64,000 nt of DNA from Bacilli bacterium (GTDB lineage: Bacteria > Bacillota_I > Bacilli_A > RF39 > UBA660): the NCBI GenBank assembly GCA_017428495.1, contig JAFRQS010000011.1:140215-204214 (forward strand). Reading direction: 5' to 3'. The notes beneath the pieces are model-generated. The model made no database searches and had not been told where the DNA came from. It saw nothing but the letters and a program-made list of their open reading frames with translations. Each line of letters opens with the position of its first letter. The first letter of the stretch is position 1. This document shows, in pieces, positions 48,716-64,000 of this stretch. Both the position numbers and the translations under genes were made by a program.

Positions 48716-49054
48716 ATGATTGAATTATTTACTATTTTAATAAAAAATATGCTATTAACAGGTGCATATCAAAATCAAGTATTTAAAGATCCTCTTAGTG
48801 AAGAAGAAGAGAAATATCATATTAAAGAAATGGGTAATGGTAGTATTAAATCTAGGGAAATACTTATTGAACATAATCTTAGATTAGTTGCGCATATAGT
48901 TAAAAAATATGGTGAAAAAGGAGATAGCTTAGATGATTTAATAAGTATTGGTACAATTGGATTAATTAAAGGAATTGATTCTTTTTCAAAAAGTAATGGT
49001 GCAAAATTAACAACTTATTGTGCAAGATGTATTGAAAATGCACACCTCACATAA
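48716..49054 (+). CDS. sigK: sporulation sigma factor SigK, N-terminal half only (spoIVCB-like; gene interrupted)
   Basis: [23 protein letters not shown] pro-sequence, then [42 protein letters not shown]...YCARCIEN, near-identical to B. subtilis pro-sigma-K region 2. Reading frame ends 4 codons past CIEN, where B. subtilis sigK is split by skin. Confidence 0.8.
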   Translation: [112 protein letters not shown]

Positions 49055-49536
49055 TGGACATAAGAGAGTCAATAACACTAGTAAATAATGTTCTTAAAAG
49101 TTTCAATTTAATAAATGATACATATACATTATTTGTTAAAGATGATATTAAAACAATTAACATTGATGAAAATAGTACATTAGGAAACCAAATTAAATAT
49201 GCTAGACAATTAAAAGGAATCACGCAAGAAGAATTAGCTAGAACACTTGGTGTAGATTCATGTACTATTAAACAAATTGAAAATAAAACTTACAAACAAT
49301 TGCATAATACAACAATAATAACTAATATAATTAATTATCTAGATATTAGGGATAAAATAAAAATAAATGATGATTACTTGGAATTTATACTAAAGAAAAA
49401 ACAACACGAAATATTTGATTTTAGAATCAAGTACAATATTGCACTTATAGATTTTGCAAATATGATAGATGTTTATCCTAAAACAATCATTAAATGGGAA
49501 AAAGATCAATCAACTATATCTAGAAAAAAAATTTGA
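49054..49536 (+). CDS. XRE-family HTH transcriptional regulator
   Basis: LGNQIKYARQLKGITQEELARTLGVDSCTIKQIENKT is a Cro/C1-type HTH; start ATG overlaps sigK-fragment stop. Confidence 0.7.
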   Translation: MDIRESITLVNNVLKSFNLINDTYTLFVKDDIKTINIDENSTLGNQIKYARQLKGITQEELARTLGVDSCTIKQIENKTYKQLHNTTIITNIINYLDIRDKIKINDDYLEFILKKKQHEIFDFRIKYNIALIDFANMIDVYPKTIIKWEKDQSTISRKKI

Positions 49537-49807
49537 AAAATATATCGAAATAAAAAATTGTTTTGAAAACAAAAGAAAATTAGATAATAGTATATTTGAA
49601 TATTATAATTTTATAAATAGTGATGTACCCTATTTAATAAAAAATTATATAAAAAAAGAAAACATAACAACAATTGATTTTGCAAAAAGAATGAATACAA
49701 ATATTAATTCAATTAGAAATATCATTAATGGTAAAAAAATAATAACAAAAAAACAATATTTTAAATTTAAAGAATTACTCGATAACAGTCACTCTCTCCA
49801 CAATTAA
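49469..49807 (+). CDS. second HTH-containing ORF, +1 frame relative to 49054 gene across an A8 tract (possible frameshifted continuation)
   Basis: ITTIDFAKRMNTNINSIRNIINGKK HTH-like segment; ORFs overlap 68 nt; homopolymer AAAAAAAA at 49527-49534 lies exactly at the frame change. Confidence 0.45.
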   Translation: MFILKQSLNGKKINQLYLEKKFEKYIEIKNCFENKRKLDNSIFEYYNFINSDVPYLIKNYIKKENITTIDFAKRMNTNINSIRNIINGKKIITKKQYFKFKELLDNSHSLHN

Positions 49808-49820
49808 TAGAAAATAAGAA

Positions 49821-50045
49821 TTAATAGGCAATCTCGATACCTTTTTTCTTATTTTCTTTTTCTTCTTTTAAGGCGTCTTCTTTAGCTTTTTGAACTAAAG
49901 TTCTTATTACCTTCTTTTTAGATTCAGAACTTATATCTAAATCTTCAACTGCCTTTAAGACTAGTGTTGCATGGACTTGTGCAACAGCTTTATTTAATTC
50001 TCTTATACCTTCTTCATCTTTTGGATAGTTTACAAAAACTTCCAT
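49821..50045 (-). CDS. small hypothetical protein
   Basis: 74-aa ORF with RBS; helical, K/E-rich. Confidence 0.45.
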   Translation of the reverse strand: MEVFVNYPKDEEGIRELNKAVAQVHATLVLKAVEDLDISSESKKKVIRTLVQKAKEDALKEEKENKKKGIEIAY

Positions 50046-62602: not shown

Positions 62603-62634
62603 TTTTTCTCCTTTCAATGTGTAAAAAAGAACAA

Positions 62635-63888
62635 TTAAGCTGTTCTTTTCCACATATAAACTTCGTATCTTAAAGGTGTTACAGAGTGAGTATGGTTTCC
62701 AAGTGTATGAGTATGTGAACTAAGTGTATGAGTATGTGAACTAAGTGTATGAGTATGTCCTTTACCTCCACCTGTATTTTGGTTGGTTGCAGTAGCATTA
62801 GCAGTATAATATGTTGAAACTCCAGCTTGTGCATTATAACCTGACGCATGACCAACATAACTATCTTTAGGAGTTACATTCATCCAAGTATCTGAATGCT
62901 GTGCATGTCTATGTGCATTTTGAACATGAGTATGACTAGGCATTTGTTCAATAGTTATTGCAGTACTTCCAGATGTATTTGTACTTGGTCCACCGGATGT
63001 ATTTGTACTTGGTCCACCAGATGTATTTGTACTTGGTGTCCCAGATGTATTGCTTCCAGCAGTATTTCCCCCAGTTCCTGCATATAAATAATATCCATTT
63101 ATTCTCTGCCATGTACCACCAAATAGTGTCGCAGGACTAGTGTTTAATATGGACATATAAATACTTCCCACTGGATATATTAAATCACATATTGTTTGTT
63201 CATCTATAATTCCTGATGAACCATTTGTAGTAATTGAATTAACAACTAAATTACCATTTGCATCTAAACTAAATTTATTATTTTTCGATGTTAAACATTC
63301 TGCCTCCAAATTATCAATCTCAAGATTTAATTTATTTTGAGTTTTTGTAAAGGCATCTTTAAAATATATATCATCTTTAGTTAATGCTCTTTTATCCCTT
63401 TGTCCATTGAAAATACCACTTGATAAATACATTTTATTTTCATCTGTATCTTTCAAAAATATTGCTGTTATTTCGATATTTGAATAGTTTGTATAAATAT
63501 AGTTAGTTCCATCAAATAATACTATATCAGCTATGTCTAATTCTTCCTCTACTGGTTCTAATAACTCACTTGTTCCATCACTACTAATTTTTCTAATTAC
63601 TTTTGATATTAATAGCGAATCATTTTCTACTACATTAACCTCTTGTAATAATTCATCACCTGTGCCATTGTAATACCTTAATATATCGTCTAAATTAAAT
63701 ACATATTGCTTCCTTTCTGAAGTAGGATTTGATGAGGCTGCTTTATCAACATATACAATTAAATCATTTGTATTAGGAGCTACTGTATTACTTTTCATTT
63801 TTAAATTTAATCTAAACAAAGATGCACTTAATGCATTTTGTATAATTATTTCATTTTGACCTGTTACTGTTTGGTCTGTTAAATTCAT
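62635..63888 (-). CDS. phage tail-fibre/collar-like protein with His-rich tandem repeats
   Basis: 417 aa; IYPVGSIYMS...FGGTWQRI tail-collar-like motif; TNTSGGPS x3 and HTHTLSS x3 repeats (24-bp and 21-bp DNA repeats at ~62985-63060 and ~62690-62755). Confidence 0.55.
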   Translation of the reverse strand: MNLTDQTVTGQNEIIIQNALSASLFRLNLKMKSNTVAPNTNDLIVYVDKAASSNPTSERKQYVFNLDDILRYYNGTGDELLQEVNVVENDSLLISKVIRKISSDGTSELLEPVEEELDIADIVLFDGTNYIYTNYSNIEITAIFLKDTDENKMYLSSGIFNGQRDKRALTKDDIYFKDAFTKTQNKLNLEIDNLEAECLTSKNNKFSLDANGNLVVNSITTNGSSGIIDEQTICDLIYPVGSIYMSILNTSPATLFGGTWQRINGYYLYAGTGGNTAGSNTSGTPSTNTSGGPSTNTSGGPSTNTSGSTAITIEQMPSHTHVQNAHRHAQHSDTWMNVTPKDSYVGHASGYNAQAGVSTYYTANATATNQNTGGGKGHTHTLSSHTHTLSSHTHTLGNHTHSVTPLRYEVYMWKRTA

Positions 63889-63947
63889 TTTTAATCATCC
63901 TTTCTTTTTCTAAAATTTTTATTTTCTCAACTATATCATTAAACAGT

Positions 63948-64000
63948 TATTTGCTAGGTAACTTCATAGGAATTTCACCTTCTTGTAACATCAAGACAGT
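63948..64000 (-). CDS. 3' end of an upstream minus-strand gene (partial, unknown)
   Basis: Open frame ending ...EGEIPMKLPSK-stop before the RBS of the tail-fibre-like gene. Confidence 0.3.

Follow-up and report, generated by a model that had tools for sequence, protein, structure and literature searches.

We have found that sigK of an uncultured gut Bacilli lineage is interrupted by a 22.4-kb element, which is a further member of the known class of sigK-intervening (skin) elements. Probably, the element is a defective phage/conjugative mosaic that is excised in sporulation to rebuild sigK. The window, i.e. the whole 64,000-nucleotide stretch of DNA analyzed, holds the 5' part of the gene and the left part of the element. 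Metagenome scaffold L001/L003, which is 100% identical to window positions 38716-64000, continues past the window end; coordinates past 64000 are extended coordinates taken from it. The features of the split gene are:

48716..49054, plus strand: 5' fragment of sigK (spoIVCB equivalent), from the ORF list, the sequence and the NCBIfam SigK models
49031..49040: attL core ATTGAAAATG, repeated at attR
49041..64000: sigK-intervening element (22,367 bp in all), of which the first 14.96 kb are in the window and 7.4 kb follow past its end
69726-71402 (extended), plus strand: large serine recombinase of 558 aa with Resolvase, Recombinase and Zn_ribbon_recom domains
71398-71407 (extended): attR core ATTGAAAATG, second copy of the 10-bp core
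71398-71772 (extended), plus strand: sigK 3' fragment, directly after the recombinase

Results

sigK is split, and splicing at a short core would restore its frame

The product of the ORF at 48716-49054 has 112 aa (MIELF...YCARCIEN, then AHLT and a stop) and consists of pro-sigma-K codons 1-108 (48716-49039) followed by four element-encoded codons (AHLT). Two NCBIfam SigK models match it over their N-terminal half only (NF004471, E=1.8e-41, positions 8-114 of 235; TIGR02846, E=7.4e-41, positions 3-113 of 227), the SigE and SigG models score well below these, and the Pfam Sigma70_r2 match ends at position 60 of 71. In alignment, the N-terminus of the host SigK is pro-sequence-like. A tblastn search of the window with full SigK matched the N-half alone, and the sole other sigma gene in the window is rpoD (10567-11649). 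An earlier note on this DNA had described the ORF as the N-terminal half of pro-sigma-K, with a frame ending four codons past CIEN and with the C-half and the recombinase missing from the remaining 15 kb; the SigK models, the AHLT tail and the tblastn search bear out all of this.

The split had also been placed at the B. subtilis skin junction. The literature reports that sigK insertion sites differ between Bacillus and Clostridium, and the papers found do not print the B. subtilis junction sequence; searching with residues 1-113 retrieved the true spoIVCB product, P0122, whose context (L172) also contains spoIVCA and ars genes. In B. subtilis spoIVCB the sequence runs TGT ATT GAA AAT GA/G ATT GTA, and the element junction reads TGT ATT GAA AAT G/CA CAC, where slashes mark the departure from sigK. 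The B. subtilis gene departs one nucleotide later than the element, so the placement was correct. A B. subtilis junction about 50 codons downstream, as given by two products that run past CIEN (P0001, 161 aa; P0045, 166 aa), was rejected from the DNA: P0045 is a frameshifted intact gene and P0001 stops at a contig end.

On the scaffold, 7.4 kb past the window end, lies the C-half of sigK with a large serine recombinase next to it. The two halves of sigK lie on the same strand, 22,367 bp apart core to core, and are intact apart from the interruption. The core ATTGAAAATG occurs just twice between 48 and 74 kb, identically at the two junctions, and the recombinase abuts the C-half with its stop codon inside the attR core. 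Splicing at the core precisely restores an in-frame, full-length SigK of 229 aa, whose residues 1-108 are 100% identical to the N-half and which matches NF004471 from end to end at 304.8 bits (cutoff 252). The insertion lies in sigK codons 106-109 (...C-I-E-N/E-I-L-M...). Because the junctions in a second host species (below) have only AATG in common, the crossover could be narrowed to AATG (49037-49040), and an outer inverted repeat in attP, CCATTA...TAATGG, is centred on its AA. The predicted attB 60-mer is GTGCAAGATGTATTGAAAATGAAATACTAATGCATTATAG and the predicted attP 60-mer is CCATTAGGTGATAATTGAAAATGCACACCTCACATAATGG. GC content was rejected as a mark of the element, since its 23.5% does not set it apart from flanks of 26.8% and 21.5%. 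An apparent indel between the window and L003 near 54214 is an N-gap in that scaffold.

The earlier note had expected an element larger than 15 kb and had proposed searching for the C-half with its recombinase and for a short core repeat at both junctions, all of which were found as above. It had also named two results that would speak against it. No second sigK occurs in the 74 kb examined, and the frame does not continue into a complete sigma factor, the empty-site genomes described next showing a clean insertion.

Occupied and empty sites in two species

Two conspecific contigs, L148 and L149, carry an intact sigK between the same flanks at 97-99% DNA identity, and both of these natural empty sites agree with the predicted attB. 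The alignments of both reach 49040 and resume at 71398, the overlap being exactly the 10-bp core. Compared with these empty sites, the boundaries of the element are clean and core-flanked, and it is a true insertion; since strains with empty sites exist, the species can do without it. The split and intact sigK alleles differ at 11 synonymous and 2 non-synonymous codons.

In a second species, where spoVAC/AD/AEB genes adjoin sigK, the same integration module lies in sigK at 97% DNA identity and the host sigK is only ~81% identical, and a module so similar in two species implies recent transfer. This host contributed 10 attL and 12 attR junctions and also has empty sites. The element was found in sigK in every context, for the recombinase (12/12) as well as for the left end (10/10), and a 57%-identical relative (L173) is likewise in sigK. 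Among the nearest genomes, sigK is intact in 80/80, which, like the spoVA genes of the second host, fits a lineage of spore formers. The host lineage consists of uncultured, small-genome gut Bacilli represented by MAGs only, with 'Clostridium sp. CAG:1193' and Ca. Coprosoma as relatives.

Members of the family range from 6.1 to 22.4 kb, the minimal 6.1-kb element being L153, and their cargo is mosaic and decaying, with the Y-family polymerase and other genes breaking into fragments in relatives. The recombinase is intact and under very strong purifying selection, its copies differing by 37-40 synonymous and 0-1 non-synonymous codon changes.

A conserved recombinase and its attachment sites

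The recombinase matches phrog_95 integrase (E=2e-90). Its nearest relatives are phage integrases of Clostridium and Terrisporobacter (38-41%), and it is ~24-26% identical to SpoIVCA and to the enzyme of a Bacillus provirus, L108. With this identity and with differing attP arms it falls outside the SpoIVCA orthologue group. The 'SpoIVCA-type' recombinase of the earlier note thus stands at the level of the large serine recombinase family and fails at any closer level, given 24% identity to SpoIVCA and a gene at the opposite end and in the opposite orientation. Among the nearest phage integrases, CP51, HM T and TPELB_ph1 were rejected as sigK integrators, as no sigK-like attP lies beside the integrase gene; IMG/VR recombinase relatives at 31-38% were rejected as sigK elements, as no sigK fragment was found nearby.

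One relative, at 53%, is a circular assembly of 7.4 kb with a conserved attP. For the element itself, the predicted attP was not found in two contig collections (metagenome contigs and viral contigs), where a calibration search with the left end alone gave 10 matches, all of them attL, and the exact spliced SigK was absent among about 15 billion proteins. Such a lack of excised product is expected if excision is limited to rare mother cells. As a separate observation, attP in relatives of the element lies inside an ORF, an integrase-HTH fusion, so that the free and integrated states encode different proteins. In the window's own copy, attP is not within an ORF and a TGA precedes the core.

Three genes are candidate directionality factors by their conservation: the double-HTH gene and the 74-aa ORF listed below, and, invariant across 12 copies (P about 0.02, post hoc), a 44-aa ORF overlapping the 5' end of the recombinase gene.

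A mosaic of incomplete phage and conjugative genes

Between attL and the recombinase the element contains:

49054..49807, plus strand: double Cro/C1-type HTH regulator, first element gene (Pfam HTH_3; L153 alignments)
49821..50045, minus strand: charged, conserved 74-aa ORF, present in the 6.1-kb minimal element L153
50145..51152, minus strand: 335-aa protein, absent from some family members
51212..53311, minus strand: VirD4/TraG-type type IV coupling-protein ATPase (Pfam T4SS-DNA_transf E=3e-67, TraG-D_C E=8e-33)
53646..54815, plus strand: 389-aa protein with a hydrophobic stretch near each end; 388-aa homologue in second-host elements
54843..56354, minus strand: lysis cassette of three genes
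54843-55688, minus strand: M23/endolysin-like protein of the cassette (phrog_9066 endolysin E=1.5e-11)
55690-56052, minus strand: holin of the cassette
56049-56354, minus strand: 101-aa membrane protein of the cassette
56423..62653, minus strand: RHS-repeat protein of 2076 aa, also containing a ricin-type lectin domain (Pfam RHS_repeat E=6e-25, RicinB_lectin_2 E=1.5e-4)
62635..63888, minus strand: tail-fibre/baseplate-like protein (Pfam Gp10_C E=2.5e-14; phrog_6465 tail protein E=1.4e-17)
64255-64731 (extended), minus strand: sigma-region-4 protein
65044-65619 (extended), minus strand: 191-aa ORF
66105-66392 (extended), minus strand: HTH protein
66848-67606 (extended), minus strand: DnaD/replication-initiator-like protein
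68071-69555 (extended), minus strand: Y-family polymerase

The ATG of the first HTH gene overlaps the stop of the truncated sigK (TAATG, 49052-49056). Kept at 93-97% DNA identity in every family member having a left end, it is the most conserved non-recombinase gene of the family and is homologous to the C-terminal part of a recombinase-HTH fusion, P0378. Its product has 248 aa in relatives; the window copy is frameshifted into 160-aa and 112-aa ORFs by an A8 run at 49524-49531 (A7 in relatives). The 74-aa ORF, which has no family match in Pfam or PHROGs, is a putative recombination directionality factor. Neither the 335-aa nor the 389-aa protein has a match in Pfam, PHROGs or PADLOC. The coupling-protein ATPase is a remnant of a conjugative element. 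Further matches in the lysis cassette are Phage_holin_4_1 (E=1e-4) and phrog_4105 (E=8e-18), and its DNA is 77-83% identical to that of the same cassette in second-host elements. The RHS-repeat protein has a variable, polymorphic-toxin-like C-terminal tail, and its module is 87% identical in DNA to that of L150 and L159. The Gp10_C gene has internal tandem repeats at 62701-62758 and 62969-63051.

Searches of the 22.4 kb with PHROGs and Pfam found no capsid, portal, terminase, tail-tube or tape-measure genes, and searches of the element ORFs with the same databases found no relaxase and no secretion or mating channel genes. Toward the gene set of a functional temperate phage (capsid, packaging and tail) the element has only the tail-fibre-like gene and the lysis cassette, and toward that of an integrative conjugative element (relaxase and mating channel) the VirD4/TraG-type ATPase alone. 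Nothing relevant came from PADLOC, Rfam or tRNA scans within the element region, and promoter and terminator scans of it showed no excess over shuffled controls. The domain searches agree with the regulators, coupling-protein-like ATPase, lysis genes, tail-fibre-like gene and toxin read earlier from the sequence. The label 'prophage/ICE-like' holds for the presence of phage and conjugative genes and not for a complete phage or ICE, the element being a defective mosaic. That the cargo is unlike that of characterised skin elements is true as a fact; it is no oddity, since differing cargo is the rule among such elements (bioRxiv 10.1101/2022.02.25.481979).

Discussion

We propose that the element's own large serine recombinase has inserted it into sigK codons 106-109, and that in vegetative cells and in the spore-inherited genome sigK is split and cannot yield sigma-K. 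In sporulation, the recombinase, probably with a directionality factor, would recombine attL with attR at AATG in the mother cell, giving an element circle and an intact gene for the 229-aa pro-sigma-K, and mother-cell lysis would discard the rearranged chromosome. The timing, the mother-cell specificity and the need for a directionality factor are proposed by analogy with B. subtilis and C. difficile.

A split gene could also reflect plain insertional inactivation, in which sigK would be an attachment site, carriers would be sporulation-defective and excision would serve only the element's transfer. The empty-site conspecifics, whose sigK works without the element, its recent movement between species, the frameshifted HTH gene of the window copy, the failure to find an excised form of this element among proteins and in two contig collections, and the known functional phages that integrate in sigK (PMC3442830, PMC13141910) all speak for it. 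However, both sigK halves are intact (11 synonymous and 2 non-synonymous codons distinguish them from the unsplit alleles), the transfer or packaging machinery is no longer in the element, and members shrink to 6.1 kb yet keep a recombinase with 0-1 non-synonymous against 37-40 synonymous changes. If host fitness depended on excision, cargo would be lost around a conserved recombinase in just this way, and we regard inactivation as unlikely.

Rather than a domesticated remnant, the element might still be active, as a temperate phage or a self-transmissible conjugative element comparable to PhiS63 or MMB025. It does carry genes for phage-type lysis, a tail fibre, replication initiation and a coupling ATPase, and the 97%-identical integration module in two species indicates recent transfer; but 22.4 kb without capsid, portal, terminase, tail-tube, tape-measure, relaxase or channel, relatives down to 6.1 kb and a polymerase gene in pieces in those relatives make this very improbable. 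An assembly chimera or a sequencing error could produce a false truncation, the window being from a metagenome-derived genome and one supporting scaffold having an N-gap. The same truncated ORF and junction nevertheless recur in public data, on at least 11 independent contigs that come from several samples and assemblers, which excludes an assembly artefact, and with the 10 attL and 12 attR junctions of the second host and precise, core-flanked boundaries against empty sites this explanation is effectively refuted, its remaining probability being negligible.

Returning to the skin-type element, a more far-reaching reading seems rather doubtful to us and is offered tentatively. A recombinase lineage related to SpoIVCA at family level only would have converged independently on the same 4-5 sigK nucleotides and would now be spreading between species of uncultured gut spore-formers. 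Its attP would lie in a recombinase-HTH ORF, a fusion in the free circle; integration would split that ORF, the recombinase taking its stop from sigK and the HTH gene coming to lie behind the sigK promoter via TAATG, in which case expression of the regulator would coincide exactly, in time and place, with sigK transcription. The outcome would be a self-timed, mother-cell-specific excision switch without a sporulation promoter of its own.

These findings would extend developmentally spliced sigK to an uncultured, small-genome lineage of gut Bacilli, and the ...IENEILM... site emerges as a hot spot at which two widely divergent serine recombinases act. The sigK halves are annotated 'FliA' (MBQ6282294.1 for the 5' fragment) and 'sigma-70 family' in GenBank MAGs, so that sporulation predictors based on gene content would miss sigK in carriers. 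Elements of 6.1 to 22.4 kb in two species, together with empty sites and a circular relative, could serve to define the minimal excision module and to find its directionality factor, and the strongly conserved 558-aa recombinase, with its defined att sites, is a candidate site-specific integration tool.

Comparison with known systems

Galperin et al. catalogued 15 skin elements of 2.6-48 kb, which have in common just one gene, for a SpoIVCA-like recombinase located at an edge and mostly preceding the C-fragment, and whose sigK halves are often misannotated (bioRxiv 10.1101/2022.02.25.481979). The element resembles these in its size, which falls within their range, in its edge recombinase and in its misannotated halves. 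That survey seems to describe no such MAG-only host, whereas the hosts here are uncultured gut Bacilli.

The skinCd element of C. difficile (CD1231 recombinase, CD1234 directionality factor), the C. tetani skin and PhiS63 of C. perfringens are, as here, serine-recombinase elements in sigK. Their excision rebuilds sigK, and sporulation controls their small directionality factor (PMC5025042, PMC3442830); excision mechanisms of skin elements are described elsewhere (PMC5025042, PMC6957869). Unlike the present element, they occupy a second site some 30 codons further downstream (GTAATGAAAT at nt 427, ...DKEGNE/I; PMC3442830), and PhiS63 is a complete phage. C. difficile SigK has no pro-sequence (PMC5025042). 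In the integration-dependent immunity of mycobacteriophage BPs, attP lies inside the repressor gene (PMC4557955, PMC3694055), a side parallel to the attP inside an ORF in relatives of the element, which does not hold for the window's own copy; BPs uses a tyrosine rather than a serine integrase, and the ORF in the relatives is an integrase-HTH fusion.

IMG/VR provirus UViG_2740891863_000004 (L108), a 25.7-kb element in a Bacillus of the B. subtilis group, shares the break at IEN/E, a recombinase directly before the sigK C-fragment and in the same orientation, and an FtsK/coupling-type ATPase. Its recombinase differs in being SpoIVCA-type, 45% identical to SpoIVCA and 26% to that of the element. 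With the B. subtilis skin (skinBs, with SpoIVCA as recombinase and Skr as directionality factor) the element shares the gene, the crossover region to within 1-3 nt, defective mosaic cargo and a host SigK with a pro-sequence-like N-terminus. The recombinase here is about 24% identical to SpoIVCA and lies beside the C-fragment, co-oriented with sigK, whereas in skinBs it is next to the N-fragment and on the other strand. No relation is seen between the attP arms (CCATTAGGTG.../...CACATAATGG here, CTAATGACAT.../...ATGTCATTAG in SpoIVCA-type attP), the sizes are 22.4 kb and 48 kb, and no cargo is held in common. Unlike skinBs, the element is a presence/absence polymorphism that has recently moved between species.

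The split sigK gene and the extended locus

The truncated sigK frame claimed in the earlier note was found as described at 48716-49054 (+), and SigK models matched it over their first halves only (NF004471, positions 8-114 of 235, E=1.8e-41; TIGR02846, positions 3-113 of 227); its Sigma70_r2 domain stops at position 60 of 71. As that note had also held, neither the C-terminal half of sigK nor a recombinase was found in the window, where rpoD (10567-11649) is the sole other sigma gene. The exact N-fragment is encoded by at least 11 public contigs. The split gene is overlooked in public MAG annotation: its N-half (GenBank MBQ6282294.1) appears as 'flagellar biosynthesis protein FliA' and its C-half as 'sigma-70 family RNA polymerase sigma factor' (further accessions MBQ6282028.1 and MBQ6282027.1).

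Apart from an N-gap of its own, a 49.7-kb scaffold (L001/L003) matches window positions 38716-64000 at 100% identity, and it runs past the window end. The C-half of sigK and an adjacent large serine recombinase, which had been proposed for a search of the remaining sequence, both lie there side by side.

Features of the split locus in extended coordinates (window plus reverse complement of L001)
48716-49054, +, sigK N-fragment ORF, 112 aa, then stop
64255-64731, sigma-region-4 protein
Past the window end, small ORFs, HTH protein and DnaD/replication-initiator-like protein
68071-69555, Y-family polymerase
69726-71402, sigK strand, large serine recombinase, 558 aa
Directly after the recombinase, sigK C-fragment ORF, ...IENEILMHYRNNKK... 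to the end of sigma region 4

Junctions and empty sites

The left junction (attL) reads ...TGTATTGAAAATG|CACACCTCACATAATGG and the right junction (attR) reads CCATTAGGTGATAATTGAAAATG|AAATACTAATGCAT. The short core repeat sought at both is ATTGAAAATG; it was found only at 49031-49040 and 71398-71407, and the element is therefore 22,367 bp from core to core, in line with the earlier estimate of more than 15 kb. When the two halves are spliced at the core, the product is a 229-aa protein that covers SigK models end to end, with scores of 304.8 bits for NF004471 (cutoff 252) and 295.7 for TIGR02846 (cutoff 298.65). The reconstructed attP (rejoined element ends) has outer inverted repeats, CCATTA...TAATGG, centered on the AA of AATG, where a serine recombinase cut would be expected.

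Two conspecific contigs, L148 (GCA_016282445.1) and L149, encode an intact SigK (P0235, 99% identical) with the same neighbors on both sides as at the split locus. L148 aligns at 97-99.5% identity with the left flank to exactly 49040 and with the right flank from exactly 71398, and these alignments overlap by the 10-bp core; the element thus entered cleanly and site-specifically, and its presence or absence is polymorphic within the species. Split and intact alleles differ by 11 synonymous and 2 non-synonymous codons. sigK is intact in 80/80 nearest genomes, at an identity of at most 83%; these are uncultured gut Bacilli, 'Clostridium sp. CAG:1193' and Ca. Coprosoma-like MAGs, one of them closed at 1.31 Mb. 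Elsewhere, L148 has an extra 418-aa gene (3717-5004) between rnfC and the YqeH-type GTPase gene that is missing from the window (45677-45720), and window positions 6883-9498 encode an 871-aa protein in which a GspF/PilC/ComGB-type pilus platform protein (C-terminal 400 aa) follows a long N-terminal extension.

Element content

The gene content read earlier (regulators, a coupling-type ATPase, lysis genes, a tail-fiber-like gene and a toxin) was all recovered: HTH regulators, a VirD4/TraG-type ATPase, an endolysin-like protein and a holin are encoded downstream of the N-fragment, as are, further on, a 2076-aa RHS protein and a Gp10_C tail-fiber-like protein. The region-4-only sigma-like protein (64255-64731) lies upstream of a co-oriented tail-fiber-like/RHS toxin/small membrane protein/holin/endolysin block (54843-63888), a layout that we take to be like that of toxin-release loci driven by small sigma factors. 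No immunity gene was evident in this region. The tail-fiber-like gene contains perfect or near-perfect tandem repeats of 21 and 24 bp (62701-62758 and 62969-63051), which encode HTHTLSS and GGPSTNTS repeats.

The first element gene, a 248-aa double-HTH frame, is frameshifted into ORFs of 160 and 112 aa by an A8 run at 49524-49531 (A7 in L153, a relative of the element), a state seen in several independent assemblies of the window's strain. Its ATG overlaps the stop of the truncated sigK (TAATG, 49052-49056). Both are element-encoded, and any sigK entered at this site would therefore be terminated four codons after the junction. Translation of the HTH gene could be coupled to that of truncated sigK, and we infer that the overlap could place this regulator under the sigK promoter.

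A mobile family in a second host

The recombinase cluster at ≥90% identity has 96 members, and in 12/12 contexts examined, all in a different host, the gene adjoins a 118-aa sigK C-fragment. In this second host, spoVAEB-spoVAD-spoVAC and RNase J come after sigK. Its sigK shares about 79% (protein) and 81% (DNA) identity with that of the window, whereas the integration modules share 97-98% DNA identity, and the recombinase codons differ by 37-40 synonymous and 0-1 non-synonymous changes; such divergence indicates a recent transfer between species and very strong purifying selection on the recombinase. Empty-site alleles also occur in the second host (P0287-P0292, 99.1-99.6% identical), and its junctions have only AATG in common, which narrows the crossover. 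Among element left-end matches in human-gut metagenomes, 10/10 were attL in sigK.

The family's cargo is mosaic. L153 is a complete element of 6.1 kb, other copies have the RHS/tail-fiber/sigma module, at 87% identity, or the lysis cassette, at 77-83%, and the polymerase gene is fragmented in family copies; family-wide conservation is confined to ~1 kb at the left end, with the double-HTH gene and a 74-aa ORF, and ~2.8 kb at the right end.

A 53% relative, P0378, is encoded on a 7.5-kb contig (L175, the whole of CBDQWC010000040.1) whose 141-bp terminal repeat indicates a 7.4-kb circle. Its ORF is a 753-aa fusion that reads through a conserved attP and on into an HTH domain with homology to the element's first gene. 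The reconstructed attP of second-host elements is likewise an open frame, and in their integrated copies the TGA that stops the recombinase spans the sigK junction. Fusions of recombinase and C-terminal HTH were found in 9/10 long relatives examined, plus the phage CP51 virion genome. In the window's copy a TGA stands ahead of the core, so no such fusion is formed.

Excision

Anatomy, selection pattern and site fidelity fit the skin paradigm, in which attL x attR excision restores sigK (PMC5025042, PMC6957869). The recombinase would accordingly be predicted to join the two ends in the mother cell. Exact spliced SigK was not found among about 15 billion proteins, nor was the predicted attP in two contig collections; both absences would be expected if excision occurs in terminal cells only.

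A 44-aa ORF in another frame (L001 4174-4040, -; extended 69715-69849, +) begins 11 nt before the recombinase ATG, extends over the 5' end of that gene and lacks its own ribosome-binding site. The -11 to +175 region has no variable site in 12 copies, versus 43 in the rest of the recombinase gene. The arrangement recalls skr and spoIVCA (skr described in PMC6957869), and the ORF is tentatively proposed as a candidate directionality factor.

Comparison with known sigK elements

The break had been placed exactly at the B. subtilis skin junction. A different B. subtilis junction was suggested by two Bacillus fragments running past CIEN, one of which turned out to be an intact gene with a frameshift, and the other of which stops at a contig end. 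The true spoIVCB product, P0122 (156 aa, 118 member sequences, on 4.15-Mb chromosomes), reads ...ATYAARCIENEI|VITKGG..., and at its locus (L172) spoIVCA lies on the other strand, with ars genes alongside. The DNA there reads TGT ATT GAA AAT GA|G ATT GTA; spoIVCB leaves sigK one nucleotide beyond the element's departure point, and the junction is therefore the same. Separately, 18 database Bacillus SigK sequences (L090, L091, Bacillus vallismortis-type) end at codon 161 since their contigs stop there, a recurrent break unrelated to the skin junction.

Two hot spots emerged when proviruses were scanned with a SigK alignment and truncated proteins were added. Site 1, CIEN|E, is used in many Bacillales and in L108, L116, L118, L119 and L120, and site 2, DKEGNE|I, by clostridial-type elements and in some Bacilli such as Parageobacillus. 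PhiS63 inserts at site 2 (PMC3442830), and its core is GTAATGAAAT. In the element's host sigK, the DNA sequences of the two sites nearly repeat each other (GAAAATGAAATA versus GGAAATGAAATA), which may explain how recombinases of different lineages land at either one. The corresponding ENEI and GNEI motifs are sigK codons 106-110 (window 49031-49045) and 135-139 (L001 about 2405-2390).

An exhaustive search returned only two 50%-cluster representatives with >50% identity to the recombinase; P0377, 57% identical, is likewise followed directly by a sigK C-fragment. Among named proteins, the closest relatives are phage integrases of Clostridium and Terrisporobacter (38-41%), which showed no sign of sigK targeting. 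The finding is real and was correctly interpreted: the element belongs to the known skin class, in a new lineage and with a distinct recombinase clade converging on the B. subtilis site. The finding is valuable chiefly for comparative work and for correcting annotation. The recombinase shares 24-26% identity with SpoIVCA and with the SpoIVCA-type enzyme of L108 (an IMG/VR provirus in sigK of B. subtilis-group Bacillus), whereas these two share 45%. The arms of a SpoIVCA-type attP (L134, CTAATGACATAGAAAATGAAATCTTAATGTCATTAG) differ from those of the element attP, and its dyad center lies ~3 nt further 3'. In B. subtilis skin, the recombinase lies by the N-fragment in opposed orientation, whereas in the element it lies by the C-fragment, co-oriented with sigK.
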